Positions 8,401-45,234 of a stretch of 64,000 nt of DNA are shown in pieces. The stretch is taken from NCBI RefSeq assembly GCF_023055435.1, contig NW_025963791.1, forward strand, positions 17,484,001 through 17,548,000, read 5' to 3'. Under the pieces are notes generated by a model. It had not been told where the DNA came from. It saw nothing but the letters and a program-made list of their open reading frames with translations, and ran no database searches. This stretch comes from Haliotis rufescens. Taxonomy: Eukaryota. Position 1 is the first letter of the stretch; each line of letters begins with the position of its first letter. A program made the position numbers and the translations under genes.

Positions 8401-10958
8401 CCCAGTCCCCGCCGTATCCATGATGTTATAAAGCTTGAGATTGATATAGCTCCCACGTTACAGGTATTAAAACATAAGCAATATTATAACTGTTCAGGGC
8501 CCTCCATGAATAGTGTGGCCCGCTGCCAACAATCAACGATATAGCTGGCATAGATACGTAGTAAAATCAGTTCGTTCCAGCTGCTGGTTGATGTTCGCAA
8601 GTGGATACACTTTCAAGTAGTACTCAGTCATTGTACCCACCCGATCCACAGTCAATTTGAACTTTTTACTAAATACATAGGTAACTTGAGACTTAATTTA
8701 CTCGTAGAAACAATAAAACGTAGAAACAATAAAACGGAGAAAAATAAAACGTAGAAACAATAAAACGGAAAAACAATAAAACGTAGAAACGATAAAACGT
8801 AGAAACAATAAAACGGAAAAACAAAAAAACGTAGAAACAAAGGAAACAATAACATAAGCAATGGTGTATACAGGGGTAAATATGAATGTGCGGATACAAC
8901 ATACATGTGCATGACATTACATTCTACACTTCTGTCTACAACATATAACAACATTACCTCGTGACAAAACAAATATATATATATAAAGCACAACCTCGTT
9001 ACCTTGAAGCATCACCAAACACACTGAGATATCCATGGTTTCGAGACAACCGAGTGTCAATGCTAGGTCAGAAAATGTATCTGCCGTGTCCTTGACCTTA
9101 TACCGTCCAAAACGATGCATCGATCAAACATATGACGTCAACGTATGAGAATAATCAGTCTCCATATTCTGCCGAAACAGATTCAATTGGGCGTAAAATG
9201 CCAAATAGCGGCGAAAATTATATGAAAATCAGTGAGGACACCAGGTGTCCCGACAATGGTAAACAAAAACAAGGTAACAAGCTTTCACTGCAAAAGCGCA
9301 CAATAAAACAATGCGGACGCAAGACAAGTTATAAACTTCAGTGCAATCACACGGGAAATGGAAAGCAGTTTCGTGAAAAATAATTTATTAATGTTTAATA
9401 AATTATTTTTCTATGGAACGAAATTACAGGAAATAGGGACCCTCGAGATAGTTAATTTATAAATGTTGAATAAATTATTTCTTTATGGAATATTTTCAAA
9501 TACATTGGGCATTTTAACATTGTATTGTATGGGCAAGTGTGCGTGTACTTTTGGAACACTTGAAATTTTCACATAAAGGGGCAATGTCAGAAAATTCCGA
9601 TAGTGAACCCTAATCGTATGACAATTTTATCTGCCAAAGATAAATAATCATGGTATATTTTCCGCAAAGTCCTAGCAGTGGATCTCATGATAGCTTTTAT
9701 CAAAATGAAAGAATTCATTTATGCTGACTGTTTGACGTTTAATACTGATGAACATAGTACCTATGGTGGCACATAAGGTATTGACGAAAGAGTACCTACC
9801 ATCTGCTGACTGACGTCTGGGCCTGTTGGGTACTGGGGGGAGTCTGGTCGCCCGTGGCTGTAAAGGGGGAGGGGGAGCGGTACCGAGGTTGGGGGGTAGG
9901 GCCATGGAATATGGATCCTCAGGTTCTTCTTGAATTGAAGAGTTCCGACCCTGCATATCCATGTAGAAACCTATAGGAGACATTGAGAGAGAAGGAACTG
10001 TTTACAAAAGCAAACAAAAAGACGAAAAAATCGTAAATTCTCCAAAAAGTCTTGGAATATAAGAACATTCAATAATTGTACATAACATGGCCCGGTACAT
10101 TGTTAATCCATGCGACAAATTCTCCTCATAGTGAGTGAGTGAATTTGGTTTTAGAACGCTTGAACAGTATTCCAGTTATATCACGGCGGGTCAGCTTAAT
10201 TTGGGAGACAAAACCGGAGTGATGCAGATCTCAGTGGAACCCACGAGCACGGGTGTGGTGCTGACAAACCTGGAAACATAATCGGGGCGAACCGGGATTC
10301 GAACACACAATCATAGGTACGCAACTGAATTGTGGCGCCTTACACGGCTGGGCCACATATGCTTACTACTTATAGAGCAGCTGATAGAGGTTTGGCATAC
10401 CCCGTCTTGTTTAACGGGTATAGTAACCCTGCATGCTTTAGACAAGTACATAACGGCAAAAGATAAAGAACTAAATTGTTGAGACGTCTTTCTCTCCATA
10501 GCGTGAAGAGACAAATATAATGTAGAAACCATCAGGGCTGACAACAGGATACCTATGAGAATGCTTCTGAAGTCTCTCTTCCCAGTGGTCGACTATACTC
10601 TTAACTTGTGGTAATGGGAGGTCATCAATAATTTGTTTGAAAGTACTTACTTTCAGTTTCAGTTTCTTCTTCGGGAATCCTGTTTTGGTACCCCGCCGCC
10701 ATGTGGGTGTAGAGATCACAGGCGTCCGCCAGATAGGCCGTCTCCTGCAAACACAAGGGCAAATAATCATTATGCAAATATAGTCACATCATTTGCAGTC
10801 AGTGTATTATAAGTATCATAACGTGACAAAACCAATATATATATATTGTGTTTACAATATGTGAGTGAGTGAGTATGGTTTTACGCCGCTTTTAGCAATA
10901 TTGAAGCAATAATACGGGGCCGGGGACACCAGAAACGGGCTTCACACATTGTACCACA

Positions 10959-11019
<61 letters not shown>

Positions 11020-14000
11020 TTTTGTCACGTTATGATACTTATAATACACTGACTGCAAATGATGTGATATATATATATACACACACACACACACAGAGTT
11101 TTAATAAGCTAGCGCTTTCAACTCGTACCACGTACGAGTCTCATCAGGCCATATATATATATATGTATATGGCCTGATGAGACTCGTACGTGGTACGAGT
11201 TGAAAGCGCTAGCCTAATAAAACTGTGTTCAATCCTACTACACTTATTTCATTATTACTATATAAATAGTATATATATATACGCCACTTCAACGTCCACC
11301 AGAGCACCATTTGTCGCCCTTGGGACTGATACACACAGTTCAATTCAACTGCAGACCGTCCGAGAACCGGCCGACCAAGAATTGCCACCTCTGCACAGGA
11401 CTTGATTGTAGTTGTGGTTCAGGGAAATTTGACAGCAAATCGCTACATGAATAATATTCTTCAACCCCACCTTCTTCCAGTCATTGGCAGCCAGAAGGAG
11501 CTGTTTCAACAGGACAACGCTCCACCGCACACAGCTTGTGTCACACGAGATACTGAGTTCAGCGCAACCTTGTGGTCTAATGTGACATTACAATGAACAG
11601 TTTTCAATGCCTTTATACAACGACAACGTTTGACTATCGAGCTTCAAAATTTCATATTTGTATCTGTGATATTAAATTAATTATATAGTCTTTATTAGGT
11701 ACAAAAAAATTACTAAAAATCTACATGTGCGTTTCTTTTTTTGAAGAGTGTATTTTAATGAATTATGACGTTTAATCGTAACTCACAAAGTCCCACGCCG
11801 AGTGTTACTTAAGTACCTCCCCCCCGTTTCATTTGGATGTGAAGTACAAGCACAGATATGAGAGAACAATAGTTAACTACATTGTAACCCTGCCTTCACA
11901 TCTGCTGTTAGCACAAATTAACATACATGTGTGCTACAGAAGGGTTGCGGGAAGACAAGCAAATGATCGTCCAAGAAATGGGATTATGCTATTGTGTTTT
12001 CAATATGTGAGTGAGTGAGTATGGTTTTACGCCGCTTTTAGCAATATTGAAGCAATAATACGGCCGGGGACACCAGAAATGGGCTTCACACATTGTACCA
12101 CACATTGTACCGGATCTTCGGCGTGACGAGCGAACGCTTTAACCACTAGACCACCCGACCGCCCGTTTACAATATGTTAAGTACCTGTATGTCAACCACT
12201 GCTGCTTCCTCGAAGAGCTGAATTATAGCCACTTAAGGCACTAAGCATGCGCAGTTCGACTGATATGGACCCAGTAGGAGACGCATACATCTTTGAGAGT
12301 GAAATATAACGACTTTACGATGATACTTTTATAATTATCTTAAACTGTGTGTAAGAACGCATACAGCAGAGTTGAAAATGACAGTTCCACGAGCAAGGTA
12401 TATATCTCCGTATTTAAAAATCCATCCGGTGAATTCACAGTGATTGTATATAAACTTACGCAAAGCAGATCTAACGCTACACCACGGAGCCATTAGGGAG
12501 AGTGATTGAATGTTTAACGCACTGACAGCAACATGTCAGTTACATCACCACCTCTGACACCTTGGACCAAGCAAACCAGTGACTTAAAGCATTGACCATA
12601 ACCCATGTCACCAGGGCACGAATGACCAATAAAGAAACGGACACACCTCTCAGAGAGTGACGGAAGGGCAGGACACTCTTACCCTTTCGCGGACACCTGA
12701 AGTCATCCGTCATTTCCAACTCTATTTTGACTTTAATGCGCAATGGAATCTGTTTCGGCAGATAATCGAGACTGGTATTTCTCTGACGTTGATGTTTTAC
12801 ATTATAGTAGTATATTCATAAAGACCCGTGAAGATCCGGGGTAGAGTAGGTCTTCAGCAACCCATGCTTGTTGTAAAAGGCGACTGTGCTTGTCGTAAGA
12901 GGCGACTAACGGGATCGGGTGGTCAGGCTCGCTGGATCGATGCTCATGATGTCAATCAATGGATTATTTGGTCCAGACTCGACCAATTTTGCTTACCATG
13001 AAATCTCGTATATACTGAGCCAATTCCGGGTAGTTGTAGACATCTGCTAGGTCGGCTGGGTCTCGCCCATCACAGTTCTCCACCTGGAAGGCTATCAGTG
13101 ACCCCGGAACATCGAGCAAGCAAGAACAAAACTCATTCAGACCGTTTGCAGCTGCGAAGTGAAGCATGGTGGGGTACTGGCTCTTGCTTTTAGTGATTCC
13201 TGAAAGACGAGAATAATAAATTTTACTTCAACTTTGCAAAGAATAAGTTTCAGGGTAAGACTATTTTCTTATGCCAACCTTTTTACCAAAAAGAAGTCAT
13301 TAACATATTTAGTATTAAGTATGAAATATATTTCATTAGAGAAGTTAATTAATCAAAATATGTTCAAATGAGCAACATAAGATAAGACCTGGTTTAAAAC
13401 GTGTCAGAGAAAATAAGACATTTAATTTCTTACTGCTTTCTTATTGATAAATTATGTCATTGTTTATTTTGTTTTAGCCGCGAAATCTTGCTGATGAGGC
13501 GTAAATCAATTTATTCATTCATTATTTTGTTTTGTTTGTGAATTAATCCTTACATTTTAAGTCATTGTACTATTTTGAGGAAAACCCTGACTGGTTATGT
13601 GAATAGGTTTTAGCAAAAAAGAGGAAGGAAAAACGTCACCCGTCCCGTGTACTTTTTGAGGAAACACGAGGAAACATGAGACATTAACTTTGAATAGGAT
13701 GCTCTTCAGTTTTAACATTGAAGGGAAATTAGTTTAGACTAATATTGTCCTGATGTTTTAATATAAATTCTCTAAAAACTCTGTAGTTTAATAACGTCAC
13801 AGATAAAAAAATATCTAAAGTAAATATCGCACGAAAGCACATCCTGCATACTCACTGAGGGTTGCATAAATCAGACAATGATGCTCGAAAAAGTTGAGGC
13901 AAATTTCCAGTACGACTGATATCGTCAAACTGTTTGAGAATAGGAAATCGACTTTCAATAACGCCATTTCTGGGATTACACAAAACATCTTCCGTCCCCA

Positions 14001-14583: not shown

Positions 14584-17069
14584 ATGACGATTTTATAGTG
14601 CTAAACCACTGAGACATCATGCCGCAGTACCCACTGAATACCCACTCAGACACAGTATACTGACCCCGAGCCGACCAGTCCTTGTTTTATCCCCGTAATG
14701 CCGTGTGGCAGGCAGGATAACAAGTACCCTCTTTCAACGTGTTTTGGTATGACGCGGCCGAGGATCGAACCCCGGACTTTCCGCTCTCCGGGCAGACCCT
14801 CTACCACTAGACCACGCAGGTGGTCTCGGGGCGAAGCGCGATTCGAACACACATTAGGTGTTTTGCGTGCTCAAGGACCCCACTCTGCACAGCGAATTGC
14901 CCAGAGAGTGTAAAGGAAGGGTTCAGAGACACTAACTGTCACGTACACATTTCTTTTTCATTGACAAATTGGTAGTTAAATTAGATGTGTGGGCATACAT
15001 GTCGGTCAAATCACACTCCAACATGAAAATAGTGATCTTAAAAGTCAAAAGTCATTTTATTACATGATGCATACATACTGCGTTCAGGATTGTACGGTGA
15101 TACGTTAAGTGCTCATTGTGGTATTAAGAGAATAACATTCTTTAATAATATGGCTGTCGTTGTTGAAAATCGGATCGGACGTGAGCACTTGTTAAAGATA
15201 AGTCCTACATAAATCTTGGGGTTTCAGTGATATCAAACATGGCACGGTGGACGGATGCCAGTTCATATAAGCTGCTTATTCTCTTGAAGTCACAGCACAA
15301 TTTAGATATACGATTAAGCTATAAGTTTCAATTAGGCAAATTACCCGAAGAAAGGGTGGTCTTGAGCTTCTCAAACAGGAACTCAAGACTATCATCCTCT
15401 GGAATGCTAGTTTCGAGGGCATCCACCAACTTCCTGTCCAGAGCAGCTTTGTTTTCACATTGCAGTGCCTGTGACAGATACTCCACTGAATGGAACGCGG
15501 TCTCTTGTGGTGCCGTGTAGTAAAATGGTGTCTTGTAAATCTCTTTGGCATCCTGGAATATATGAATGACATAGTTCCCGGGTGCAAGATCTGTGGAGAA
15601 GAAAATACATTCATTGAAGGTTTACCGTTAAAGTAGTATTCACGTATATTTCAGTGATCGGCGTATTTATGTTCAATATTATTTCGACTTTTGAAACTTG
15701 TGTTGTATTTTGTTCCATGAGAGAACCGAATAATGAGGGACGAATGATAACAATATGTGATCTGGTTGATGTGTCAGCCTGTCACATAGCTTTATCGTTG
15801 TCATGCTATTAAACACTGATTTGCACGATAAAGCGAGAATATAACTCGGTGTGGCGTAAAAGAGTATTAGTTTATACCGTCAGTACCTAACGTAATGATG
15901 GCGTTTTGCATTACATATACAGAATCACAACAAAGCCCACTTTTATCTGGAGAGACGACGCCCGGGTTATCGACATCATAACAATGTCAAGCAGGTTCAC
16001 AGAGAACAACGGAAGTTTATATCCAAAACTTCCGCAAAATATAACATTGTTGCTGACATTACAAGGAAACGTACCTGGTGCTTTCAACTTGACTGTATAA
16101 GGGTTAAGTTTCTTGGTGTCGTATTTGGTTGTAGGATCATTGAAGCTGACTTGAATTGTCCCCTTTTTCTCTTCTCTGAGAGCTATTACAATGTCATCCT
16201 GAGGCTGAAAGGGAGGTGAGAATAGTCAACTCAGAAATGTCGGGTATAACAAACTGTACCATCACTATTGACGTGGCGGCCTTATTGACAATCAATAGAG
16301 CAACTCTTAGAGGAGGTCCAATGAGAACAAGCATGACAAGGTTCATCTTCATTGGTCCAGTGGTTTCCGAAGAGAACATTTTTACACAGGGACAGTCAGG
16401 TCCTGACTCAGTCTGACGAGCTTACTCGCATTTAAAATATATCAAACAATAAAGTAACATAGAATATCATTATTCAACAGACATTACATATAATAAAATA
16501 ACAATGGTAACGATCTATGTAGAAAATCATAAACATACTCCATGAACGCGAGTGGGGATCACTTTAAGCTTCACATCAAAACTGGACTTAGATTCTTTCC
16601 TTCTCTCTGGCCTGGAAGGGGGAGGTGGGGGCGGAGCGTCACTCTGGTCCACAATGTCCATCATGTCAGCCACCATGTTTCTGTTGTCATTGTAATCGGT
16701 GCCTATCACATAATGCTTCCACGAAGACGATGCTCTATAATTCTCAGCGACAGCATCATCAAACTGCCCACTGTCCACATAGCACAAGACCGCTACGACT
16801 GTGGTTTTGCCATGCAACTGCTTGAAGGGCTCACTGAACCAGGTCTTGTCTGCCATGAACTGCAGCATATCTGGAGATGCCAGAATGATGACGAGATAGG
16901 ATTCCTTCACAGCCATAGCCACCTCTGGGGGGTTTTCATACTCCATTGAGTCTAAGTCCATTGATTTGATTCTGAGAGTTTTGTTCATTGCAAACAGTCT
17001 CATGAGGTACGAACTCCACTCTGCTGCATCCTGGACGTGGAATACCACAATGTCGTTCGACTTGGACAT
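2312..17069 (-). CDS. PIK3AP1: BCAP/PIK3AP1 (BANK1/Dof family) adaptor, spliced gene of about 670 aa: join of 17069-16539, 16204-16075, 15590-15345, 13199-12997, 10744-10651, 9970-9800, 6139-5969, 5510-5344, 3512-3357, 2461-2312 (or a donor at 2371 plus further exons)
   Basis: All ten exons have AG acceptors, the first nine have GT donors, and phases are consistent (0,1,1,0,1,1,1,0,0). The translation has BCAP-like motifs: DIVVFHVQDAAEWSSYL (TIR N-terminus), NPYTVKLKAP (DBB), YPTMLHFAAANGL (ankyrin), SQNELLEIMDGVKEG..EALMLFKAWQ (C-terminal coiled coil). The symbol denotes family homology; orthology is untested. Confidence 0.85.
2530..2985. repeat. Minisatellite, 25-bp unit ctatacaactatgtaccatacattc
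   Basis: Direct period of 25 (e.g. 2761, 2786, 2811). Confidence 0.9.
3357..3512 (-). CDS. PIK3AP1: BCAP-like exon 9
   Basis: ttcatcag|NTLRMMREEYNTVIDTV...RHVPQIS|gtacgt; 156 nt, phase 0 to 0, continuing the coiled coil. Confidence 0.75.
4545..5325. repeat. Heptamer-based repeat (ctaaaac/ctccaac) with a 42-bp higher-order block
   Basis: ctccaat-ctccaag-ctaaaac-ctccaac-ctctcag-ctacaac repeated at about 4756-5060. Confidence 0.85.
5344..5510 (-). CDS. PIK3AP1: BCAP-like exon 8 (conserved coiled-coil region)
   Basis: gtttgcag|ALPRVAMGSTSQNELLEIMDGVKEGNFNPHEALMLFKAWQQRNGERQSKSFKQRQ|gtaacg; 167 nt. Confidence 0.85.
5969..6139 (-). CDS. PIK3AP1: BCAP-like exon 7 (low-complexity linker)
   Basis: cttctcctgtag|ACAPASRPSQPTAPRLTRVNSE...VEDE|gtacgt; 171 nt, phase 1 to 1. 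Confidence 0.7.
6411..6659 (+). mobile_element. tRNA-derived SINE family D
   Basis: B box ggttcgaatcc and (ACTC)n tail. Second copy at 10131-10345(-) and a degenerate one at about 17715-17870(+). Confidence 0.65.
7650..7796. repeat. Long imperfect inverted repeat, probably the end of a non-autonomous DNA element (Crypton-like)
   Basis: gaatctcactcacgtgtcttc...aatatatcaaga pairs with tcttgatatattcg...gaagacacttgagtgagattc. The family assignment is inference. Confidence 0.55.
8703..8850. repeat. Short minisatellite, about 16-bp unit cgtagaaacaataaaa
   Basis: Direct tandem copies. Confidence 0.8.
9800..9970 (-). CDS. PIK3AP1: BCAP-like exon 6 (YMDM motif, Pro-rich)
   Basis: tctcctatag|FYMDMQGR...PPPPLQPRATRLPPVPNRPRRQSAD|gtaggt; 171 nt, phase 1 to 1. 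Confidence 0.8.
10651..10744 (-). CDS. PIK3AP1: BCAP-like exon 5 (YxxM motif YTHM)
   Basis: gtttgcag|ETAYLADACDLYTHMAAGYQNRIPEEETETE|gtaagt; 94 nt, phase 0 to 1. Confidence 0.8.
11107..11150 (-). ncRNA. Second minimal type-I hammerhead motif, inverted copy
   Basis: The reverse complement reads ggc CTGATGA gactcgtacgtggtacgagtt GAAA gcgc TA gct. Confidence 0.65.
11171..11214 (+). ncRNA. Minimal type-I hammerhead ribozyme motif (Penelope-like pLTR type)
   Basis: ggc CTGATGA gactcgtac-gtg-gtacgagtt GAAA gcgc TA gcc: both core boxes, a 9-bp stem II, palindromic stem III (AGCGCT), the UH site and a 3-bp stem I, followed by AATAAA. Confidence 0.7.
11285..11752 (+). mobile_element. Tc1 transposon 3' remnant
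   Basis: VQGNLTANRYMNNILQPHLLP...FQQDNAPPHTA; right TIR-like end gcgtttc(T)ngaagagtg followed by TA. Confidence 0.7.
12007..12164 (-). mobile_element. SINE family A copy with internal deletion
   Basis: Reverse-complement match to 691-860; flanking caatatgt duplication. Confidence 0.8.
12823..12985 (+). mobile_element. SINE family B copy, 3' truncated, next to the exon 4 donor
   Basis: gaagatccggggtag...cttgtcgtaagaggcgactaacgggatcgggtggtcagg. Confidence 0.7.
12997..13199 (-). CDS. PIK3AP1: BCAP-like exon 4 (ankyrin repeats)
   Basis: tctttcag|...QYPTMLHFAAANGLNEFCSCLLDVPGSLIAFQVENCDGRDPADLADVYNYPELAQYIRDFM|gtaagc; 203 nt. Confidence 0.9.
14465..14826 (-). mobile_element. tRNA-derived SINE family C with internal (CA)n
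   Basis: Head gaccacctgcgtggtctagtgg...ggttcgatcctcggccgcgtcataccaaaa. Related pieces at 19815-19925(+), 22248-22520(+) and 3045-3110(+). Confidence 0.7.
15345..15590 (-). CDS. PIK3AP1: BCAP-like exon 3 (DBB domain)
   Basis: ctccacag|DLAPGNYVIHIF...VEYLSQALQCENKAALDRKLVDALETSIP...|gtaatt; 246 nt, phase 1 to 1. Confidence 0.85.
16075..16204 (-). CDS. PIK3AP1: BCAP-like exon 2 (DBB domain)
   Basis: ccctttcag|PQDDIVIALREEKKGTIQVSFNDPTTKYDTKKLNPYTVKLKAP|gtacgt; 130 nt, phase 0 to 1. Confidence 0.85.
16539..17069 (-). CDS. PIK3AP1: BCAP-like exon 1: TIR-like domain plus poly-Pro linker
   Basis: MSKSNDIVVFHVQDAAEWSSYLMRLF...VIILASPDML...PPPPPPSRP...KVIPTRVHG. Acceptor tttttgcag before 17092, donor gtatgt after 16539. 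Confidence 0.85.
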
Positions 17070-18011
17070 CCTGGATGCCAAGTCTCCACGTTCTGCAAAA
17101 ACAAGCGGCTATGGTATAACATTACATTAGCAACATTGCACCTTTTACGTCTACTAGACACCATGACAGTACAACTGCATACCATGGCTGGGCCGATACG
17201 TGAGTATGTGATCGACACATAACGGGTGATAACGAACTTGTTGAAACTGTGTTAAGACTACCAAAATGACAAGGTGAGTAGGATACGTTTCAACTCTAAG
17301 GATTTTCACAAAAATAGCCAATTATGTACAACTTTATCTTTTAAATATAAATGTCCAATTTACAATAATCAGTGAGTCACGATCCACACTAGAAGTAGCT
17401 TATGACACCCCAGGTTCAAAGTCAAAGAATGTACATTTGTACTAGGGGCTTCTGTTCCATCTACACTGCAACATTCATATATTTCTTGTATGTTAAAAGC
17501 AGAGCGAAGTAACTCTTGGAGGTTTGATAACGCCATGGCGTCTTACACGTGTGAGCATAAAAATGGGACCTTGGATAAAAATGCAATTAGGTGTTGACAG
17601 CATTAAAATATACGTAGAATTAAACTATTTACAAAGCTACGTTTTCTGGGAGTACAAAATAACATTAATCTCCAATTCAATTTTACAAAAAAGGATTCCC
17701 TGCGGGGAGGAGCATGAGTGGTCCATTCGTCTTCACGCTTAAATATCGCCGTCCTTAGTTGTGCCAGAAACCTATGATTGTGGCATCACTTCAAACTTTC
17801 CTCCCACATCAATCTGACACGCTGTGCTATAACTGGAACACTGTTCACAGCGGTGTTAACTAATTCACTCAGTCACATTAAACATGTCATCACTTGTCAT
17901 ACATAGGTATTGAACAGGAGAGGGCAGTAGAAATGACACCGTTACTTGATTGTTTCTTCTTGTTCCTGACAGTGACGATAATGTATCATAGGATGAACAT
18001 ATTCACCACAA

Positions 18012-25157: not shown

Positions 25158-25829
25158 ATATATGCCAGTAAACTTATAGCCAGAACTGAGAAGGTTCCGT
25201 GGAGGTTATGAGGTCAATGTTCTATCTTGGTAAAATACTCTTTGCTATTTGAGAGTGTTGACAATAACGTAATATAAATGTACTGAAAATAGAGAACATG
25301 CTCTATGTATTTACACAATTTGAGGATGTAATAATATGCTATGAAAATGAAGTAATATATATTTGTTATAATTATATAATAATTTGCGTTTAGTATCCTA
25401 CCTTGTCTGGGTTGGTTTATTGCTTTGGAAACGTATCAGCCGATGGACTAATGATTATAAGCTGTTTGTCAAATGGGGAGATTAAAATTAACAGCTGTGT
25501 CGATGTACATTATGCACTGAAGCAGACAAACACGCTTTAAATTCTTTTTATAACTTTAATTAACTTCCCTGTTGGAGACATCACGATGTATTAAAGGATA
25601 TGTCTCTAGCTGCTAAAAGAGATTACTGCAAAACCGCGATAGTCCGGACCACGTTAATCCGAAAACCCCACCTTCCAGCATATTACTGCTGGGAACGCTC
25701 ACATGTACAGTACTTTGTAACCATAGCTCGTTTATCCGAAACCTTGTTGATACGAACGATGGTAGGGGGATTAACGGGGTTTCATTTTGGAGATATGTTC
25801 AACTATTACACGCTGTGGCATATGGGGTG

Positions 25830-28800
25830 GCCAGCAGTGTTGGCCGTGGCGTGTGGGATGTGAAGGCAGTGTTGTATGGGTTGTGTGGGATGTGAAGGCA
25901 GTGTTGGATGGGGCGTGCGGGGTGTGTGGCCAGTGTTGTATGGGTTGTGCGGGGTGTGTGGGAAGTGATGGATGGGGCGTGCGGGAGGTGTAGGCAGAGT
26001 TGTATGGGTTGTGTAGGATGTGTAGGCAGTGTTGGATTGGGCGTGCGGGGTGTGTGGGAAGTGATGGATGGGGCGTGCGGGATGGGTGGGCAGTGTTGTA
26101 TGGGTTGTGTGGGATGTGAAGGCGTGGGCAGAGTTGTATGGGTTGTGTGGGATGTGTGGGCAGTGTTTGATGGGGCGTGCGGGATGTGTAGACAGTGTTT
26201 GATGGGGCGTGCAGGATGTGCTAGCAGTGTTGGATGGGGCGTGCAGGATGTGTGGGCAGTGTTGGATGGGGCGTGCGGGATGTGTAGACAGTGTTTGATG
26301 GGGCGTGCAGGATGTGTGGGCAGTGTTGGATGGGGCGTGCGGGATGTGTGGGCAGTGTTGGATGGGGCGTGCGGGATGGGTGGGCAGTGTTGTATGGGTT
26401 GTGTGGGATGTGTAGGCAGTATTTGATGGGGCGTGCGGGATGTGTAGGCAGTGTTGGATGGGGCGTGCAGGATGTGTGGGCAGTGTTGGATGGGGCGTGT
26501 TGGATGTGTGACCAGTGTTGGATGGGGCGTGCAGGATGTGTGGGCAGTGTTGGATGGGGCGTGCAGGATGTGCTAGCAGTGTTGGATGGGGCGTGCAGGA
26601 TGTGTGGGCAGTGTTGGATGGGGCGTGCGGGATGTGTGGGCAGTGTTGGATGGGGCGTGCGGGATGGGTGGGCAGTGTTGTATGGGTTGTGTGGGATGTG
26701 TAGGCAGTGTTTGATGGGGCGTGCAGGATGTGTGACCAGTGTTGGATGGGGCGTGCGGGATGTGTGACCAGTGTTGGATGGGGCGTGCGGGATGTGTGAC
26801 CAGTGTTGGATGGGGCGTGCGGGATGTGTGACCAGTGTTGGATGGGGCGTGCAGGATGTGTGGGCAGTGTTGGAAGGGGCGTGCGGGATGTGTGGGCAGT
26901 GTTGGATGGGGCGTGCGGGATGTGTGACCAGTGTTGGATGGGTTGTGCGGGATGTGTGGGCAGTGTTGGATGGGGCGTGTTGGATGTGTAGGCAGTGTTG
27001 GATGGGGCGTGCGGGATGTGTGGCCAGTGTTGGGTGGGGCGTGCAGGATGTGTAGGCAGTGTTGGATGGGGCGTGCAGGATGTGTGGGCAGTGTTGGATG
27101 GGGCGTGCGGGATGAGTGACCAGTGTTGGATGGGGCGTGTGGGAGGTATGGGCAGTGTTTGATGGGGCGTGCAGGATGTGTGGGCAGTGTTGGATGGGGC
27201 GTGCGGGATGTGTGGGCAGTGTTGGATGGGGCGTGTGGGAGGTATGGGCAGTGTTTGATGGGGCGTGCAGGATGTGTGGGCAGTGTTGGAAGGGGCGTGC
27301 GGGATGTGTGGGCAGTGTTGGATGGGGCGTGCGGGATGTGTGACCAGTGTTGGATGGGTTGTGCGGGATGTGTGGGCAGTGTTGGATGGGGCGTGTTGGA
27401 TGTGTAGGCAGTGTTGGATGGGGCGTGCGGGATGAGTGACCAGTGTTGGATGGGGCGTGATGGGTGTGTGGGCAGTTTTGGATGGGGCGTGTGGGATGTG
27501 TAGGCAGTGTTGGATGGGGCGTGATGGATGTGTGGGCAGTGTTGGATGGGGCGTGTGGGATGTGTGGGCAGTGTTGGATGGGGCGTTTGGGATGTGTTAG
27601 CAGTGTTGGATGGGGCGTTTGGGATGTGTGACCAGTGTTGTATGGTGCGTGCGGGATGTTTGGGCAGTGTTGGATGTGCTAACAGTGTTGGATGGGGCGT
27701 GCGGGATGTGTGGGCAGTGTTGGATGGGGCGTGTGGGATGTGTTAGCAGTGTTGGATGGGGCGTTTGGGATGTGTGACCAGTGTTGTATGGTGCGTGCGG
27801 GATGTTTGGGCAGTGTTGGATGTGCTAACAGTGTTGGATGGGGCGTGCGGGATGTGTGGGCAGTGTTGGATGGGGCGTGTGGGATGTGTTAGCAGTGTTG
27901 GATGGGGCGTTTGGGATGTGTGACCAGTGTTGTATGGTGCGTGCGGGATGTTTGGGCAGTGTTGGATGTGCTAACAGTGTTGGATGGGGCGTGCGGGATG
28001 GGTGGGAAGTGTTGGATGGGGCGTGCGGGATGTGTGGGCAGTGTTGGATGGGGCGTGTTGGATGTGTGGGCAGTGTTGGATGGGGCGTGTTGGATGTGTG
28101 GGCAGTGTTGGATGGGGCGTGTGGGATGTGTTAGCAGTGTTGGACGGGGCGTGTTGGATGTGTTAGCAATGTTGGATGGGGCGTGCAGGATGTGTAGGCA
28201 GTGTTGGATGGGGCGTGTTGGATGTGTGACCAGTGTTGTATGGTGCGTGCGGGATGTGTGGGCAGTGTTGGATGTGCTAGCAGTGTTGGATGGGGCGTGC
28301 AGTATGTGTAGGCAGTGTTGGATGGGGCGTGCGGGATGTGTGGGCAGTGTTGGAATGGGGCGTGTTGGATGTGTGGGCAGTGTTGGAAGGGGCGTGCGGG
28401 ATGTGTGGGCGGTGTTGGATGGGGCGTGTTGGATGTGTGGCCAGTGTTGTATGGGGCGTGCGGGATGTGTGGGCAGTGTTGGATGGGGCGTGTGGGATGT
28501 GTAGGCAGTGTTGGAAGGGGCGTGCAGGATGTGTGGCCAGTGTTGGATGGGGCGTGTGGGATGTGTAGGCAGTGTTGGATGGGGCGTGCGGGATGTGTGG
28601 CCAGTGTTGGATGGGTCGTGCAGGATGTGTAGGCAGTGTTGGATGGGGCGTGTAGGATGTGTAGGCAGTGTTGGATGGGGCGTGCAGGATGTGTGGCCAG
28701 TGTTGGATGGGTTGTGCGGGATGTGTAGGCAGTGTTGGATGGGGCGTGTAGGATGTGTAGGCAGTGTTGGATGGGGCGTGCGGGATGTGTGGCCAGTGTT

Positions 28801-29750
28801 GGATGGGTTGTGCGGGATGTGTGGCCAGTGTTGGATGGGTTGTGCGGGATGTGTGGGCAGTGTTGGATGGGGCGTGTTGGATGTGTAGGCAGTGTTGGAT
28901 GGGGCGTGCGGGATGAGTGACCAGTGTTGGATGGGGCGTGATGGGTGTGTGGGCAGTGTTGGATGGGGCGTGTAGGATGTGTAGGCAGTGTTGGATGGGG
29001 CGTGCGGGATGTGTGGCCAGTGTTGGATGGGGCGTGTGGGATGTGTAGGCAGTGTTGGATGGGGCGTGCGGGATGTGTGGCCAGTGTTGGATGGGGCGTG
29101 CAGGATGTGTAGGCAGTGTTGGATGGGTCGTGCAGGATGTGTAGGCAGTGTTTGATGGGGCGTGTTGGATGTGTAGGCAGTGTTGGACGGGGCGTGTGGG
29201 ATGTGTAGGCAGTGTTGGATGGGGCGTGTGGGATGTGTAGGCAGTGTTGGATGGGGCGTGCGGGATGTGTAGGCAGTGTTGGATGGGGCGTGCAGGATGT
29301 GTGGCCAGTGTTGGATGGGTCGTGCAGGATGTGTAGGCAGTGTTGGATGGGGCGTGTAGGATGTGTAGGCAGTGTTGGATGGGGCGTGCAGGATGTGTAG
29401 GCAGTGCTGGATGGGTCGTGCAGGATGTGTAGGCAGTGTTTGATGGGGCGTGTTGGATGTGTAGGCAGTGTTGGACGGGGCGTGTGGGATGTGTAGGCAG
29501 TGTTGGATGGGGCGTGTGGGATGTGTAGGCAGTGTTGGATGGGGCGTGCGGGATGTGTGGCCAGTGTTGGATGGGTCGTGCAGGATGTGTAGGCAGTGTT
29601 GGATGGGGCGTGTAGGATGTGTAGGCAGTGTTGGATGGGGCGTGCAGGATGTGTAGGCAGTGCTGGATGGGTCGTGCAGGATGTGTAGGCAGTGTTTGAT
29701 GGGGCGTGTTGGATGTGTAGGCAGTGTTGGACGGGGCGTGTTGGACGGGC
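25830..29750. repeat. GT-rich minisatellite, 32-bp unit ggcagtgttggatggggcgtgcgggatgtgtg, about 120 copies
   Basis: Direct periodicity; source of the His/Pro and Cys/Gly pseudo-ORFs. Confidence 0.95.
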
Positions 29751-30034
29751 GGGCATTGTCGGATGTCGGGACTGAGTCGCAAGTACGACTGAGACAGATG
29801 ACGAACTACTTGAAACAACGAGTTTAAGTGCTTGACAACCCGTGACACATTATTCTTTCCCTTTCCCAAATAAAACTCTCATACTTATGTTTTAGAGGTA
29901 CGTAAACTAGGAAGTAAGATGTCACAGAGGCAACTCACTATGTACATGACATGGGTGAAACTACACTTTTGAATGTCAAAGTGACATCACTTCACAGATT
30001 TGTGTGGAAGTGTTGCCTCTGTAGAAATAACATA

Positions 30035-31150
30035 TATAGGAGGAGTAGAAGGTAGGAGGAGTAGGAGTAGGAGGAGTAGGGGTAGGAAGAATAGAAGGAG
30101 TAGGGGTAGGAGGATTGGGAGGAATAGGAGAGGTAGGGGTAGGAGGAGTAGGAGGAATAAGAGGAGTAAGAGTGTAGGGGAAGTAGGAGTAGGAGGAGTA
30201 GGAGGAATTGAAGGAGTAGGGGTATGAGGAGTAGGAGGAATAGGAGGAGTAAGAGTGTAGGGGAAAGAGGAGTTGGGGTAGGATGAGTAGGATGAGTAGG
30301 GGTATGAGGAGTAGGAGGAGTAGGGGTATGAGGAGTAGGATGAGTAAGAGTGTGGGAGAAGTAGGAGTAGGAGTAGGGGAGGAGAAGGAGTAGAAGTAAG
30401 AAGAGGAGGAATAAGAGGAGTAGGAGGGGTAGGAGAGTAGGGAGAGTAGGGGTGTAGGAGTAAGAGAGTAGAGGAGTAGGGGTGTAGGAGGAGTAGGGAT
30501 GTAGGAGGAGTAGTGGTTTAGGAGGAGTAGGAGCAACAGGGGGTAGGAGGAGTAGGGGTGTGGGGGGAGAAGGGGTATAGGAGGCGTAGGAGACTAGGGG
30601 GAGTAGTGGTGTAGGAGGAGTAGGAGCAATAGGGTGTAGGAGGAGTAGGAGCAACAGGGGGTAGGAGGAGTAGGGGTGTAGGAGGAGTAGGGCCGTAGGA
30701 GGAGTAGGAGAGTAGGGGAGTAGGGTGTAGGAGGAGTAGGAGAGTAGGGGGAGAAGGGGTATAGGAGGAGTGGGAGACTAGGGGGAGTAGTGGTGTAGGA
30801 GGAGTAGGAGCAATAGGGTGTAGGAGGAGTAGGAGTGTAGGAGGAGTAGGGGTGTAGGAGGAGTAGGAGCAATAGGGTGTAGGATGAGTAGGGTGTAGGA
30901 GGAGTAGGGGTGTGGAGGGAGAAGGGGTATAGGAGGCGTAGGAGACTAGGGGGAGTAGTGGTGTAGGAGGAGTAGGAGCAATAGGGTGTAGGAGGAGTAG
31001 GGGTGTAGGAGGAGTAGGGGTGTAGGAGGAGTAGGGCCGTAGGAGGAGTAGGAGAGTAGGGGCAGTAGGGGTGTAGGAGGAGTAGGGGTGTAGGAGGAGT
31101 AGGGGTGTAGGAGGAATAGGGGTAGGAGGAAAAAGGAGGAGTAGGAGGAA
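30035..31150. repeat. Polypurine (GGA/GTA/GGG) low-complexity repeat
   Basis: ggagtaggaggagtagg motifs throughout. Confidence 0.9.
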
Positions 31151-31820
31151 TGGGTAATGCTGTGTGTTCAGCGTGGAAGGGGTTGACAACAATGCACGAC
31201 CAAGCTAGAGGAAAGGGTTAAATTAACAATCCCCTAAAATTCAGTAGGGGAATCCCCTAAAATGTAAATATGCCTGTCTTTATTACATAAATATTCCTAA
31301 TTGATATAGCTAACAAACCCTTCTGATTTCCTTAAAATCAATATTGGACACAAGAGCAGAACAAGTCATCCCATAGGTATGCGAGAATTGCGATAAATAA
31401 TGTGATGTGACATTTGAAAAGTAGAGCGAGAAATGTGACGACGTCGGCCATGAGAAACAGAGGGGATTTTCCCCTCGTTGCTCGTGTATCGGCATGTGAG
31501 CTACGAGGGCTGGCTGAAAAGTAGATCGAGTCACGTGTTGACATGCACAATGTAGGACAACGTGTATACTAGTACTCAATGAATACACCTGTGCCAGGTA
31601 CATGTATTATGTCTGTGTGGAAATTATAGCAACACGTCAGACACGAAACAACTTCCTAGTCTTGAAACGCGATGACCATTGTATCAACATGCACGTTACC
31701 AAATGTAAAGCTTATATTGACTGACATACATCCTGGCAAAATTGCATCCTTCCTGCTGGTTTGATATGCCATAATCTGTTCCTGTGTCATTTGACATTGA
31801 TATCAGTTTACCGCAGACAC

Positions 31821-32000
31821 GAGACAGACACCGAGACCTGTATTCAACATGCATATTTATCTTTCGGAACTAGTCTCTGTTTGGAGTCATTAAACGATAT
31901 TTGTGTTCGAGACAGACACCGAGACCTGTATTCAACATGCATATTTATCTTTCGGAACTAGTCTCTGTTTGGAGTCATTAAACGACATTTGTGTTCGAGA
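31821..32000. repeat. 88-bp tandem duplication
   Basis: gagacagacaccgagacctgtattcaac...gtgttc occurs at 31821 and 31909. Confidence 0.85.
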
Positions 32001-37034: not shown

Positions 37035-40000
37035 ACACTGTAGACAATCATCGACGTGAGTGGGACCAGCAGGGTAGAGACACTGTAGACAGTCATCGAC
37101 GTGAGAGGGACCAGCATGATAGAGACACTGTAGACAGTCATCGACGTGAGTGGGACCAGCAGGGTAGAGACACTGTAGACAGTCATCGACGTGAGTGGGA
37201 TCAGCAGGGTAGAGACACTGTAGACAGTCATCGACGTGAGTGGGACCAGCAGGGTAGAGACACTGTAGACAGTCATCGACGTGAGAGGGATCAGCGGGGT
37301 AGAGACACTGTAGACAGTCATCGACGTGAGAGGGACCAGCAGGGTAGAGACACTGTAGACAGTCATCGACGTGAGAGGGATCAGCAGGGTTGAGACACTG
37401 TAGACAGTCATCGACGTGAGAGGGATCAGCGGGGTAGAGACACTGTGGACAGTCATCGACGTGAGAGGGACCAGCAGGGTAGAAACACTGTAGACAGTCA
37501 TCGACGTGAGTGGGACCAGCAGGGTAGACACTGTAGACGGTCATCGACGTGAGTGGGACCAGCAGGGTAGACACTGTAGACGGTCATCGACGTGAGAGGG
37601 ACCAGCAGGGTAGAGACACTGTAGACAGTCATCGACGTGAGTGGGACCAGCAGGGTAGAGACACTGTAGACAGTCATCGATGTGAGAGGGACCAGTAGGG
37701 TAGAAACACTGTAGACAGTCATCGACGTGAGAGGGATAAGCGGGGTGAAGACAATGTGGACAGTCATCGACGTGAGAGGGACCAGCAGGGTAAAAACACT
37801 GTAGACAGTCATCGACGTGAGTGGGACCAGCAGGGTAGAGACACTGTAGACAGTCATCGATGTGAGAGGGACCAGTAGGGTAGAAACACTGTAGACAGTC
37901 ATCGACGTGAGTGGGATCAGCAGGGTAGAGACACTGTAGAAAGTCATCGACGTGAGAGGGACCAGCAGGGTAGAGACAGTGTAGACAGTCATCGACGTGA
38001 GAGGGATCAGCGGGGTAGAGACACTGTGGACAGTCATCGACGTGAGAGGGATCAGCGGGGTAGAGACACTGTAGACAGTCATCGACGTGAGAGGGATCAG
38101 CGGGGTAGAGACACTGTGGACAGTCATCGACGTGAGAGGGATCAGCGGGGTAGAGACACTGTGGACAGTCATCGACGTGAGAGGGACCAGCAGGGTAGAA
38201 ACACTGTAGACAGTCATCGACGTGAGTGGGACCAGCAGGGTAGACACTGTAGACGGTCATCGACGTGAGTGGGATCAGCGGGGTAGAGACACTGTAGACA
38301 GTCATCGACGTGAGAGGGATCAGCGGGGTAGAGACACTGTGGACAGTCATCGACGTGAGAGGGATCAGCGGGGTAGAGACACTGTGGACAGTCATCGACG
38401 TGAGAGGGACCAGCAGGGTAGAGACACTGTAGACAGTCATCGACGTGAGAGGGATCAGCGGGGTAGAGACACTGTGGACAGTCATCGACGTGAGAGGGAC
38501 CAGCAGGGTAGAGACACTGTAGACAGTCATCGACGTGAGAGGGATCAGCGGGGTAGAGACACTGTGGACAGACATCGACGTGAGAGGGACCAGCAGGGTA
38601 GAGACATTGTAGACGGTCATCGACGTGAGAGGGATAAGCGGGGTGAAGACAATGTGGACAGTCATCGACGTGAGAGGGACCAGCAGGGTAAAAACACTGT
38701 AGACAGTCATCGACGTGAGTGGGACCAGCAGGGTAGAGACACTGTAGACAGTCATCGACGTGAGAGGGAACAAGAGGGTAGAGACACTGTAGACAGTCAT
38801 CGACGAGAGTGGGATCAGCAGGGTAGAGACACTGTAGACAGTCATCGACGTGAGTCGGACCAGCAGGGTAGAGACAGTGTAGACAGTCATCTACGTGAGT
38901 GGGATCAGCAGGGTAGAGACACTGTAGACAGTCATCGACGTGAGTCGGACCAGCAGGGTAGAGACGCTGTAGACAGTCATCGACGTGAGTCGGACCAGCA
39001 GGGTAGAGACGCTGTAGACAGTCATCGACGTGAGTCGGACCAGCAGGGTAGAGACAGTGTAGACAGTCATCGACGTGAGTCGGACCAGCAGGGTAGAGAC
39101 AGTGTAGACAGTCATCGACGTGAGTGGGACCAGCAGGGTAGAGACAGTGTAGACAGTCATCGACGTGAGTCGGACCAGCAGGGTAGAGACACTCGAGACA
39201 GTCATCGACGTGAGTCGGACCAGCAGGGTAGAGACAGTGTAGACAGTCATCGACGTGAGTGGGACCAGCAGGAGAGACGCTGTAGACGGTCATCGACGTG
39301 AGAGGGACCAGCAGGGAAGAAACACTGTAGACGGTCATCGACGTGAGTCGGACCAGCAGGGTAGAGACGCTGTAGACAGTCATCGGCGTGAGAGGGACCA
39401 GGAGGGTAGAAACACTGTAGACAGTCATCGACGTGAGTGGGATCAGCAGGGTAGAGACACTGTAGACAGTCATCGACGTGAGAGGGATCAGCAGGGTAGA
39501 GACACTGTAGACAGTCTTCCGAGTGTGCGGGATCAGCAGGGTAGAGACACTGTAGACAGTCTTCCGAGTGTGCGGGATCAGCAGGATAGAGACACTGTAG
39601 ACAGTAATTGACGTGAGAGGGACCAGTAGGGTATAGACACTGTAGACAGTCATCGACCCGAGAGGGACCAGCAGGGTAGAGACGTTGTAGACAGTCATCG
39701 ACGTGAGTCGGACCAGCAGGGTAGAGACACTGTAGACAGTCATCGACGTGAGAGGGATCAGCAGGGTAGAGACACTGTAGACAGTCATCGACGTGAGAGG
39801 GATCAGCAGGGTAGAGACACTGTAGACAGTCATCGACGTGAGAGGGATCAGCAAGGTTAAAGACACTGCAGACAGTCATCGACGTGAGAGGAACCAGCAG
39901 GGTAGAGACACTGTAGACAGTCATCGACGTGTGCAGGATCAGCAGGGTAGAGACACTGTAGACAGTCTTCCACGTGTGCTGGATCAGCAGGGTAGAGACA

Positions 40001-43000
40001 CTGTAGACAGTCATCGACGTGAGAGGGATCAGCAGAGTAGAGACACTGTAGAAAGTCATCGACGTGAGAGGGATCAGCAGAGTAGAGACACTGTAGACAG
40101 TCTTCCACGTGTGCAGGATCAGCAGGGTAGAGACACTGTAGACAGTCTTCCACGTGTGCAGGATCAGCAGGGTAGAGACAGTGTAGACAGTCATCGACGT
40201 GAGAGGGATCAGCAGGGTAGAGACAGTGTAGACAGTCTTCCACGTGTGCAGGATCAGCAGGGTAGAGACACTGTAGACAGTCTTCCACGTGTGCAGGATC
40301 AGCAGGGTAGAGACACTGTAGACAGTCTTCCACGTGTGCAGGATCAGCAGGGTAGAGACACTGTAGACAGTCTTCCACCTGTGCAGGATCAGCAGGGTAG
40401 AGACAGTGTAGACAGTCATCGACGTGAGAGGGATCAGCAGGGTAGAGACAGTGTAGACAGTCTTCCACGTGTGCAGGATCAGCAGGGTAGAGACACTGTA
40501 GACAGTCATCGACGTGAGAGGGATCAGCAGGGTAGAGACAGTGTAGACAGTCATCGACGTGAGAGGGATCAGCAGGGTAGAGACACTGTAGACAGTCATC
40601 GACGTGAGAGGGACCAGGAGGGTAGAGACAGTGTAGACAGTCATCGACGTGAGAGGGATCAGCAGGGTAGAGACAGTGTAGACAGTCTTCCACGTGTGCA
40701 GGATCAGCAGGGTAGAGACACTGTAGACAGTCTTCCACGTGTGCAGGATCAGCAGGGTAGAGACAGTGTAGACAGTCTTCCACGTGTGCAGGATCAGCAG
40801 GGTAGAGACACTGTAGACAGTCATCGACGTGAGAGGGATCAGCAGGGTAGAGACAGTGTAGACAGTCATCGACGTGAGAGGGATCAGCAGGGTAGAGACA
40901 CTGTAGACAGTCATCGACGTGAGAGGGACCAGCAGGGTAGAGACACTGTAGACAGTCATCGACGTGAGAGGGATCAGGAGGGTAGAGACACTGTAGACAG
41001 TCATCGACGTGAGAGGGACCAGCAGGGTAGAGACACTGTAGACAGTCATCGACGTGAGAGGGATCAGCAGGGTAGAGACACTGTAGACAGTCATCGACGT
41101 GAGAGGGACCAGCAGGGTAGAGACACTGTAGACAGTCATCGACGTGAGAGGGACCAGCAGGGTAGAGACACTGTAGACAGTCATCGACGTGAGAGGGATC
41201 AGCAGGGTAGAGACAGTGTAGACAGTCTTCCACGTGTGCAGAATCAGCAGGGTAGAGACACTGTAGACAGTCTTCCACGTGTGCAGGATCAGCAGGGTAG
41301 AGACACTGTAGACAGTCATCGACGTGAGAGGGACCAGGAGGGTAGAGACAGTGTAGACAGTCATCGACGTGAGAGGGACCAGCAGGGTAGAGACACTGTA
41401 GACAGTCATCGACGTGAGAGGGACCAGGAGGGTAGAGACAGTGTAGACAGTCATCGACGTGAGAGGGACCAGCAGGGTAGAGACACTGTAGACAGTCATC
41501 GACGTGAGAGGGACCAGGAGGGTAGAGACAGTGTAGACAGTCATCGACGTGAGAGGGACCAGGAGGGTAGAGACAGTGTAGACAGTCTTCCACGTGTGCA
41601 GGATCAGCAGGGTAGAGACACTGTAGACAGTCATCGACGTGAGAGGGACCAGGAGGGTAGAGACAGTGTAGACAGTCATCGACGTGAGAGGGACCAGCAG
41701 GGTAGAGACACTGTAGACAGTCATCGACGTGAGCGGGATCAGCAGGGTAGAGACACTGTAGACAGTCATCGACGTGAGAGGGACCAGGAGGGTAGAGACA
41801 CTGTAGACAGTCATCGACGTGAGCGGGATCAGCAGGGTAGAGACAGTGTAGACAGTCATCGACGTGAGAGGGATCAGCAGGGTAGAGACACTGTAGACAG
41901 TCATCGACGGGAGAGGGATCAGCAGAGTAGAGACACTGTAGACAGTCATCGACGGGAGAGGGATCAGCAGAGTAGAGACAGTGTAGACAGTCTTCCACGT
42001 GTGCGGGATCAGCAGGGTAGAGACACTGTAGACAGTCTTCCACGTGTGCAGGATCAGCAGGGTAGAGACAGTGTAGACAGTCATCGACGTGAGAGGGATC
42101 AGCAGGGTAGAGACAGTGTAGACAGTCTTCCACGTGAGTGGGATCAGCAGGGTAGAGACAGTGTAGACAGTCTTCCACATGAGCGGGATCAGCAGGGTAG
42201 AGACAGTGTAGACAGTCTTCCACGTGAGTGGGATCAGCAGGGTAGAGACAGTGTAGACAGTCTTCCACGTGAGTGGGATCAGCAGGGTAGAGACAGTGTA
42301 GACAGTCTTCCACATGAGCGGGATCAGCAGGGTAGAGACAGTGTAGACAGTCTTCCACATGAGCGGGATCAGCAGGGTAGAGACAGTGTAGACAGTCTTC
42401 CACGTGAGTGGGATCAGCAGGGTAGAGACAGTGTAGACAGTCTTCCACGTGAGTGGGATCAGCAGGGTAGAGACAGTGTAGACAGTCTTCCACATGAGCG
42501 GGATCAGCAGGGTAGAGACAGTGTAGACAGTCTTCCACATGAGCGGGATCAGCAGGGTAGAGACAGTGTAGACAGTCTTCCACATGAGCGGGATCAGCAG
42601 GGTAGAGACAGTGTAGACAGTCTTCCACGTGTGCAGGATCAGCAGGGTAGAGACACTGTAGACAGTCTTCCACGTGTGCAGGATCAGCAGGGTAGAGACA
42701 GTGTAGACAGTCATCGACGTGTGCAGGATCAGCAGGGTAGAGACAGTGTAGACAGTCATCGACGTGTGCAGGATCAGCAGGGTAGAGACGCTGTAGACAG
42801 TCTTCCACGTGAGCGGGATCAGCAGGGTAGAGACAGTGTAGACAGTCATCGACGTGAGAGGGATCAGCAGGGTAGAGACAGTGTAGACAGTCTTCCACGT
42901 GTGCAGGATCAGCAGGGTAGAGACAGTGTAGACAGTCATCGACGTGTGCAGGATCAGCAGGGTAGAGACGCTGTAGACAGTCTTCCACGTGAGCGGGATC

Positions 43001-43638
43001 AGCAGGGTAGAGACAGTGTAGACAGTCATCGACGTGAGAGGGATCAGCAGGGTAGAGACACTGTAGACAGTCATCGACGTGAGAGGGATCAGCAGGGTAG
43101 AGACACTGTAGACAGTCTTCCACGTGAGTGGGATCAGCAGGGTAGAGACAGTGTAGACAGTCTTCCACATGAGTGGGATCAGCAGGGTAGAGACAGTGTA
43201 GACAGTCTTCCACATGAGCGGGATCAGCAGGGTAGAGACAGTGTAGACAGTCTTCCACATGAGCGGGATCAGCAGGGTAGAGACAGTGTAGACAGTCTTC
43301 CACGTGTGCAGGATCAGCAGGGTAGAGACACTGTAGACAGTCTTCCACGTGTGCAGGATCAGCAGGGTAGAGACAGTGTAGACAGTCATCGACGTGAGAG
43401 GGATCAGCAGGGTAGAGACACTGTAGACAGTCTTCCACGTGTGCAGGATCAGCAGGGTAGAGACAGTGTAGACAGTCTTCCACATGAGCGGGATCAGCAG
43501 GGTAGAGACAGTGTAGACAGTCTTCCACGTGTGCAGGATCAGCAGGGTAGAGACAGTGTAGACAGTCATCGACGTGTGCAGGATCAGCAGGGTAGAGACG
43601 CTGTAGACAGTCTTCCACGTGAGCGGGATCAGCAGGGT
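37035..43638. repeat. Minisatellite, 45-bp unit gacactgtagacagtcatcgacgtgagagggatcagcagggtaga, about 147 copies
   Basis: Period of 45; lies between the LINE ORF1 and endonuclease remnants. Confidence 0.95.
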
Positions 43639-45234
43639 CCCCATCGTGTTGTCAAATTTGCCTCATGCTCTCACACTGGAGAAATAACAGGCAGTGAATT
43701 GGGAATCGGCCAGGCCTTCATGATTATAGGAAACTTCACTCAGGTGAACATTTCACCCCATCCAAGTGTAAGAAATTATACTGACACTGCTACTATTGAA
43801 ACTTTACCTCACCCAAGTGTTGGAAACGACACTGACAACATTAGATTTTAGTTTCTGGAATGTGTCTGGTCTGATCTCCAAACTAAATGATTTTAGTTTT
43901 ATGAATTTTGTTATCTCATTTGATATCAGTGGTTTAACTGAAACTTGGTTACCCGATATAGATTGAAATACTGTTTTCAGGGAATTTGAAACAAGGTCTC
44001 AAAGTTCGGAAGACTGTCAGGTAGTGTTATAGTTCTGATCAGAAAAAAAACTTTCTAGATATACAAAATGGACAGAGATATGTGAAAGCGGCATTTTCAT
44101 ACTGTTCGATAAAGATACGTATGTCTGGTTCACAAAAAGATATTGTATACTCATATGTTTATATACACCCTGGATTTTCGACTTGGTATAATGATCCATC
44201 GCGTCAGTGTAAAAATGGGATATTATTATTTCAAGACAGCTTATTAGACCAACTGAATAAATGTGAGAATGTATATATTTTGTTTGGAGCTGATTTTAAC
44301 CCAAGAACAGATATCGACGATTTTGTTGAAGATGACATGGAGATGAGTTCTAGAGCGTCATGATAATTCTACATTTTGCTAGTTCACTTTACATTAAAGC
44401 GCTACTCTGTTGACAGCTTGGTGACAGGTTTGCTAAATGCTTGTTTGAAATGTGCAGTGTTTTTAATATTCATATCATGACTGGAAGATGCTGTACAGAT
44501 TCTAAAATTGGGGATTAGACTTTTATTGGCTCGCCGGGAGCGAGCGTTTCAGACTATGTATACCTATTTGACATTTGTAATAATGTTGAAATTCACGCTT
44601 CGAAACTCGACATCTTCCTGTCACGATGTGTCTCAGCACACCATGTGTAACACAAGAGACGTGTAACACATATACGAATGCTTCATTCAATTTCGTATGA
44701 AAAGAAGAGAAATGGAAAGTCTTCATAGGAACATTATCATCAAATGATGTTGTAGATTTTTTTACAAAAGCAGTAAATGCAGCATTTTCTAGTATTAATG
44801 ATCGTGTGCAATACATTACTGAAGCTTTATGTATAGCTGTTGATAATATGAAGAAAAGGTCTGGCAATACTAACTACATAGAGCCGTTGTGTAATATCGA
44901 CTTTAATGAGGGAAAGATGCAGATGTTTAAATACATTTCGGAGAAAGAAAGATTTGAAAACTACCTCAGTGTTCGTAATCAATACAATGAAACGTGTAGA
45001 CGTATTATGAAAAAAGGCTTCCCTTTTTGGAACAACATATTGACGATTCGAAAGCATTTTGGACAACAATAATTATTAAAGATCTTGGGGAAATACGGCA
45101 CAAGCAGAATATTATTTATATTAAGAATTGGTATGAGCATTTTAAGGAACTTTCTTCAACACCAGATGGAGAAGAATATTTTTAAGCAAGGATACATACT
45201 GAGTTCTTTTCTATTTTCATTCTTTATTAAGGTA

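Follow-up and report, generated by a model that had tools for sequence, protein, structure and literature searches.

The inverted pair of hammerhead cores in an intron of a BCAP-like gene of Haliotis rufescens, within the 64,000-nucleotide stretch of DNA that was analysed (referred to as "the window" in this study), very probably consists of two head-to-head, heavily 5'-truncated pseudo-LTR (pLTR) copies of a Penelope-like element (PLE) of the Neptune/Nematis type. A single insertion into a (TA)n tract is likely to have produced both copies, which are predicted to be catalytically silent because they fold into a hairpin. Most likely, the pair is ordinary, inactive transposon debris.

Results

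Layout and boundaries of the inverted pair

The first-pass annotation had described an inverted pair around a (TA)n spacer, and this arrangement was confirmed. The pair forms a 68-nt inverted repeat (positions 11093 to 11160 and 11161 to 11228; 94% complementary) that is a real hairpin-forming structure. The left arm (11093 to 11153, minus strand), a 5'-truncated pLTR copy that is sense to the host pre-mRNA, spans element positions −6 to +54 (with C3 of the core taken as 0), and its 3' end lies 16 nt past the core, short of the usual 3' ends of the PLE family. The right arm (11168 to 11263, plus strand), also a 5'-truncated pLTR copy and antisense to the host, starts at element position −6 and extends as far as the short 3' end of the family. 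Between them, a self-complementary (TA)n spacer of 14 nt (11154 to 11167) forms the head-to-head junction. The pair is bounded on the left by a (TA)n(CA)n microsatellite (11064 to 11095) and on the right by AAATAG plus (TA)n (11264 to 11281); as the right junction sits in a repeat, a target-site duplication is indiscernible there.

A comparison of the arms shows 3 differences in 61 positions, each of them private with respect to the family majority. Private bases of this locus are located at 11096, 11107 and 11217. The inner 46 bp of the pair are perfect, with all three mismatches located within the outer 20 (P = 0.025, calculated post hoc), and a comparison of core versus flank differences gave P = 0.03. 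Perfect palindromes at TA repeats form a known class of assembly artefact, and the pair could in principle be a fold-back chimera of this kind. However, the three private differences argue against such an artefact, as does the presence of the same architecture at approximately 22 loci, and we consider this explanation almost certainly wrong.

Four departures from the family majority were found in the right arm, all of them behind the core, one of which creates the AATAAA at 11216 to 11221. This hexamer had been noted earlier as following the plus copy, and it is indeed present, but it lies on the strand antisense to the host, and it is a point variant seen rarely in the family (2 of 100 sites, the majority carrying ATTAAA). 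A role for it as a working poly(A) signal was ruled out on both counts.

Hammerhead cores and predicted activity

A simple scan (CUGANGA, a paired stem and GAAA) identified exactly two cores in the 64-kb window, at 11174 on the plus strand and at 11147 on the minus strand. Each is composed of CUGAUGA, a 9-bp stem II, GAAA and GCGCUA, and contains GAAAGCGCUA and a CUA triplet, with cleavage predicted after A11211 (plus strand) and after A11110 (minus strand). Both arms thus carry the CUGANGA/GAAA/UH core of a minimal type-I hammerhead. They had been regarded as complete hammerheads of this type; the cores are intact in both, but the distal stem I (CAGUU/AACUG in the family) is gone, as both arms start 6 nt before CUGAUGA. 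What is left of stem I is 3 bp in either arm, compared to a bulged stem of 10 bp in the family and to the helix I of at least 4 to 5 bp of a minimal type-I hammerhead. The left-arm remnant is GGC/GCU, and the predicted energies of the stem I duplex are −5.8 kcal/mol for the family, −3.8 kcal/mol for the right arm and −1.4 kcal/mol for the left arm.

Each strand holds one sense ribozyme whose antisense is transcribed before it. One copy had been expected to be sense to the host, and one sense ribozyme is in fact present; since the gene is on the minus strand, however, it is the left arm and not the AATAAA copy. As there is only one sense ribozyme per strand, a cis dimer of the arms is impossible, and a cis double-hammerhead built from both arms was ruled out by this strand geometry. 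The earlier suggestion that the ribozyme is locked in a hairpin was upheld by the predicted folds: on the host strand, the hairpin (−115.3 kcal/mol) is ahead of the hammerhead (−56.3 kcal/mol) by 59 kcal/mol, and on the opposite strand it is ahead by 72 kcal/mol. In the host pre-mRNA the antisense arm would be transcribed first, so that the sense ribozyme would pair with it during its emergence, and with a 3-bp stem I and a palindromic stem III lacking a partner, no cut would be expected. From these models we infer that neither arm would self-cleave in its context. PLE hammerheads are reported to cleave slowly even as dimers (PMC6765202), and a Poseidon hammerhead to require protein (PMC11167929).

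A search with the Rfam hammerhead models, which had been proposed as a check, did not recover the pair: no match was obtained for the window stretch at E values up to 10. As the same models also miss family copies at two other loci (L007 and L013), the blank reflects the models.

The Penelope-like family in the genome

The exact 39-nt core is present in 107 genome copies versus 0 for a reversed control, and the match is therefore not due to chance. When stem II was allowed to vary, 216 matches were obtained; the 31-nt 3' flank occurs 186 times, and searching the genome with the right arm as query yielded 468 candidates, of which 40 were scored. The site census used below comprises 100 distinct exact-core sites with their flanks, 7 of the 107 copies not being included.

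In longer copies, the stop codon of an open reading frame lies about 110 nt ahead of the CUGAUGA of the core. This frame encodes a GIY-YIG domain (a 423-aa frame at locus L019; PF01541, E = 4.7e-7) and, at locus L086, a partial reverse transcriptase (RVT_1, E = 2.6e-5, below the Pfam cut-off). A CX4CX2C linker, CGDKRCLTC, is situated at residue 296 of the L019 frame, between the reverse transcriptase (RT) and endonuclease (EN) regions. Family ORF sequence was present in the fetched flank at 50 of the 100 sites, while a search of the window itself found no PLE ORF remnant. These are marks of EN+ PLEs of the Neptune/Nematis type, including a CX2-5CxxC linker, as described in PMC8557442. On these sequence motifs, the family of origin is placed among EN+ Penelope-like elements of the Neptune/Nematis type, the two clades being taken together. 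The reading of the pair as a solo PLE pLTR footprint is thus borne out, as is the expected link between genome copies that conserve the core and PLE reading frames.

Truncation at the 5' end is common, as 36 of the 100 sites begin within 30 nt of the core. The 3' ends fall into two classes approximately 40 nt apart, 50 to 59 nt (48 of 100) and 90 to 104 nt (25 of 100) behind the core, and the longer class is the optional tail of EN+ PLEs. A (TA)4 sequence was found at the 3' junction of 63 sites and at the 5' junction of 17, versus 16 of 3913 background windows.

An intact full-length element (pLTR-ORF-pLTR) was sought among the fetched loci and not found. A 3955-bp tandem (99.7%) at L074 on contig C79, with PLE copies inside, is a segmental duplication. 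L031 and L032 likewise belong to a segmental duplication carrying PLE copies, with the units about 12.4 kb apart on contig C594. At L083 (1487 to 6001, plus strand), an open frame of at least 1505 aa lies upstream of a pLTR copy; we take it to resemble an LTR retroelement polyprotein of the BEL/Pao group. Contigs of set X15, which we guess to be RNA, fit other family copies (T at 11217, family 5' flank) and not the window locus.

A sister family, B, with 46% protein identity (L034, 1530 to 3500; L048, 3636 to 5700; L020; L021), carries its core 192 nt behind the stop codon. Here the core has CUGAAGA, a 6-bp stem II and the palindrome AGUACU for AGCGCU, and the proximal stem I is ACA/UGU instead of GGC/GCC, with the distal CAGUU/AACUG retained. 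The compensated changes in stem II, stem III and proximal stem I therefore support the ribozyme fold for the active element, the covariation in helices II and III coming from this one sister family only. Family B is often inserted in a TA tract adjoining the first family.

Conservation of the core among copies

Among 30 copies picked by their 3' flank, 6 start inside or behind the core and others are internally deleted. Core substitutions amounted to 17 of 952 letters. The 3' UTR had 72 of 1462, a figure raised by variants that are private to the reference copy. The truncations, deletions and substitutions of these copies give no clear signal that the core came under purifying selection once inserted, and this reading was not adopted. 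In 6 of the 30 copies (L115, L122, L123, L126, L127 and L139), an internal deletion lies within the stem II hairpin or extends across it, and this hairpin may be deletion-prone. Behind its perfect core the right arm carries four differences; 2 of the 100 sites have four and 80 have three or fewer. Together with the perfect inner 46 bp of the pair, this is a weak hint that the core was preserved.

How the inverted pairs arise

Inverted neighbours are routine in this PLE family. An inverted element fragment was found at the 5' junction of 35 of the 100 sites; in 25 rows (22 distinct loci) this fragment extends into the 3' region of the element, and in 13 rows (10 loci, L068 among them being doubtful) it covers the core. 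A strict pattern search of the genome identified three core pairs no more than 30 nt apart. A T/A marker at position +41 (61 T and 37 A among family sites) was concordant between the arms in 21 of 25 inverted pairs, compared to a chance expectation of 0.53 (P = 0.001), and in 20 of 24 when the window pair was omitted (P = 0.002); the 25 distinct pairs are those left from 37 rows after 8 rows were removed as reciprocals or duplicates and 4 for lack of a marker call. As a rule, therefore, a single template and a single event supply both arms. Homogenisation of the arms by gene conversion was ruled out, as most other pairs differ along their whole arms.

Two independent insertions in opposite orientation into one TA microsatellite were also considered, as TA tracts are strand-symmetric hot spots and the spacer itself is (TA)n; moreover, the second PLE family adjoins the first at several loci. 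However, the two window arms have an identical truncation point and share the +41 allele, and arm concordance is family-wide. Such a double insertion is thus improbable.

Of 22 back-to-back pairs, the window pair among them, 6 have inner ends no more than 10 nt apart, where 1.7 would be expected (P = 0.001), and 3 have inner ends no more than 3 nt apart (P = 0.017). At the window locus we favour a fold-back, because of the shared start at −6, the odd end of the left arm and the adjoining inverted host duplication at a TA tract (see below). The following steps would account for the structure: a nicked TA repeat would have primed the element RT, with copying begun at the short 3' end that is usual in the family; the RT would have halted 6 nt beyond the core, at a point where TAT in the element fits the target; and the self-complementary (TA)n would have folded back, priming a copy of the new arm. 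This copy, made either by the element RT or by host repair, would yield two arms that start alike, the left one having an unusual end.

A less probable but substantial alternative is that both nicked strands were primed in one insertion and the arms joined via complementary TA tails, with no fold-back. It is a real rival because a purified Poseidon protein acts on both strands of the target, cutting and extending them (PMC11167929). It accommodates the +41 concordance equally well, and the inner ends are unequal in 16 of the 22 back-to-back pairs, so that two-end priming is at least as common as fold-back in the family; both processes seem to occur. For the window pair, on the other hand, it has to contend with three observations: both arms begin exactly at −6, for which a permutation gave an expectation of 0.09 such pairs among 22; the left-arm end, 16 nt behind the core, matches neither usual start of reverse transcription; and the adjoining host segment is likewise duplicated in inverted orientation at a TA tract. 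Position −6 is itself a minor hot spot of truncation, shared by 3 of the other 98 sites, and the symmetry of the window arms could be coincidental.

The host gene, its intron and a neighbouring composite

The host gene lies on the minus strand. Its exon at 16527 to 17105 encodes a TIR_3 domain (PF18567, E = 3.5e-9), and a weak Ank_2 match (E = 6.8e-4) is present at 12967 to 13227, a combination from which we presume its BCAP-like identity; two further exons gave no Pfam match. The placement of the pair in an intron of this gene held true: the intron (10745 to 12996, minus strand) has GT-AG ends and its flanking exons join in frame. The pair is located approximately 350 to 520 nt upstream of the 3' splice site.

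Next to the pair, 11005 to 11072 (minus strand) is a 68-bp inverted copy (99%) of host intron 10778 to 10846, joined by (TA)n. This host segment has no further copy in the genome. Its two copies are predicted to pair with each other, giving another long hairpin whose end is 33 nt away from the 3' splice site (10745). A 122-bp direct copy (97%; 10844 to 10965, plus strand) of 11990 to 12109, followed by (TA)26, adds to this local composite. Its source, 1.1 kb away, takes in the start of a common repeat plus its flank, and the copy looks like a templated insertion. On the host-sense strand, an AUUAAA followed by a UG repeat (11105 to 11076, minus strand), partly within the hairpin, resembles in sequence a cryptic intronic poly(A) signal.

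The hairpin might be under selection as a double-stranded RNA element of the BCAP-like gene, serving in editing, as a small-RNA source or as a splicing modulator. Its inner 46 bp are free of mismatches, which are confined to the outside, the second 68-bp hairpin lies close by, and the host-sense arm contains the AUUAAA and UG repeat. However, the perfect inner segment was given little weight, because the pair was chosen for its intact cores and four other pairs (L027, L034, L084 and L108) also have zero arm differences. Matches of Rfam miRNA models to the hairpin are all below the gathering score and reflect the hairpin shape only. We therefore regard selection on the hairpin as very unlikely. 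Equally hard to credit is a broader scenario, in which the PLE machinery built all of 10844 to 11263 (the direct and inverted copies of neighbouring host DNA together with both pLTR arms) by successive TA-primed template jumps, and in which the two resulting hairpins, close to the 3' splice site on its upstream side, undergo editing or change how the BCAP-like transcript is spliced or polyadenylated within the intron.

Small-RNA reads from three runs were placed on the stretch in numbers of 0, 4 and 1, each covering about 30 nt only and none falling on the hairpin; placement skipped 11020 to 11106 as repeat, the run with 0 reads amounts to no test, and reads of this length do not bear on RNAs of 21 to 23 nt.

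Other features were seen in the window. A frame with a QQDNAPPH motif occupies 11282 to 11590, and 11330 to 11593 gave no Pfam match; this frame is presumably like a decayed Tc1/mariner transposase. Another intron carries a tandem repeat of about 10 copies of 16-nt units (8681 to 8854), and the long tracts at 25771 to 32000 and 38000 to 44000 consist of tandem repeats with a strong skew and hold repetitive open frames.

Discussion

As one of approximately 22 back-to-back pLTR pairs among 100 sites, the locus carries little weight singly. Its value is as a record of PLE insertion, in which the arms usually come from one template and junction symmetry exceeds chance; the junction counts could inform the question of how PLE inverted repeats form. 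The inverted arrangement may, as we infer, disarm the ribozyme and thereby help such insertions to persist in introns.

Opposite-strand pairs of minimal hammerheads and inverted pLTRs have already been published (PMC4209133; PMC3846280). With the minimal hammerheads of PMC4209133, the pair shares: the CUGAUGA/GAAA/UH core; a long helix II and a short helix I; a 2-bp palindromic helix III; and an occurrence mostly as solo truncated copies. That paper describes dual hammerheads that lie on opposite strands with about 100 to 700 bp between them, and reports that a single motif did not cleave. The window cores are only 27 nt apart. Both window cores also lack the distal stem I that the PLE family and sister family B carry.

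Non-LTR retrozymes (bioRxiv 10.64898/2026.07.22.740005) resemble the pair in being non-coding, PLE-related and equipped with type I hammerheads. They are, however, built of directly repeated tandem units and carry two or more sense hammerheads, whereas the window pair is inverted and has a single sense core on each strand, and classification of the pair as a retrozyme was ruled out on this basis.

With Neptune and Nematis, the family has in common a C-terminal GIY-YIG domain, the CX4CX2C linker (CGDKRCLTC) and a (TA)n bias. The closest parallels to the pair itself are the inverted-pLTR units of EN+ PLEs (PMC3846280; PMC8557442), which share 5' truncation, an adjacent inverted and 5'-truncated copy, an optional tail of 30 to 40 bp (in the family) and (TA)n targets that mask target-site duplications. 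In contrast to these units, the window pair has no ORF sequence left, neither of its arms is tailed, and a TA spacer is located at its junction. The head-to-head orientation is a further shared feature, and in PMC3846280 the palindromic junctions of such inverted pLTRs are read as self-priming.
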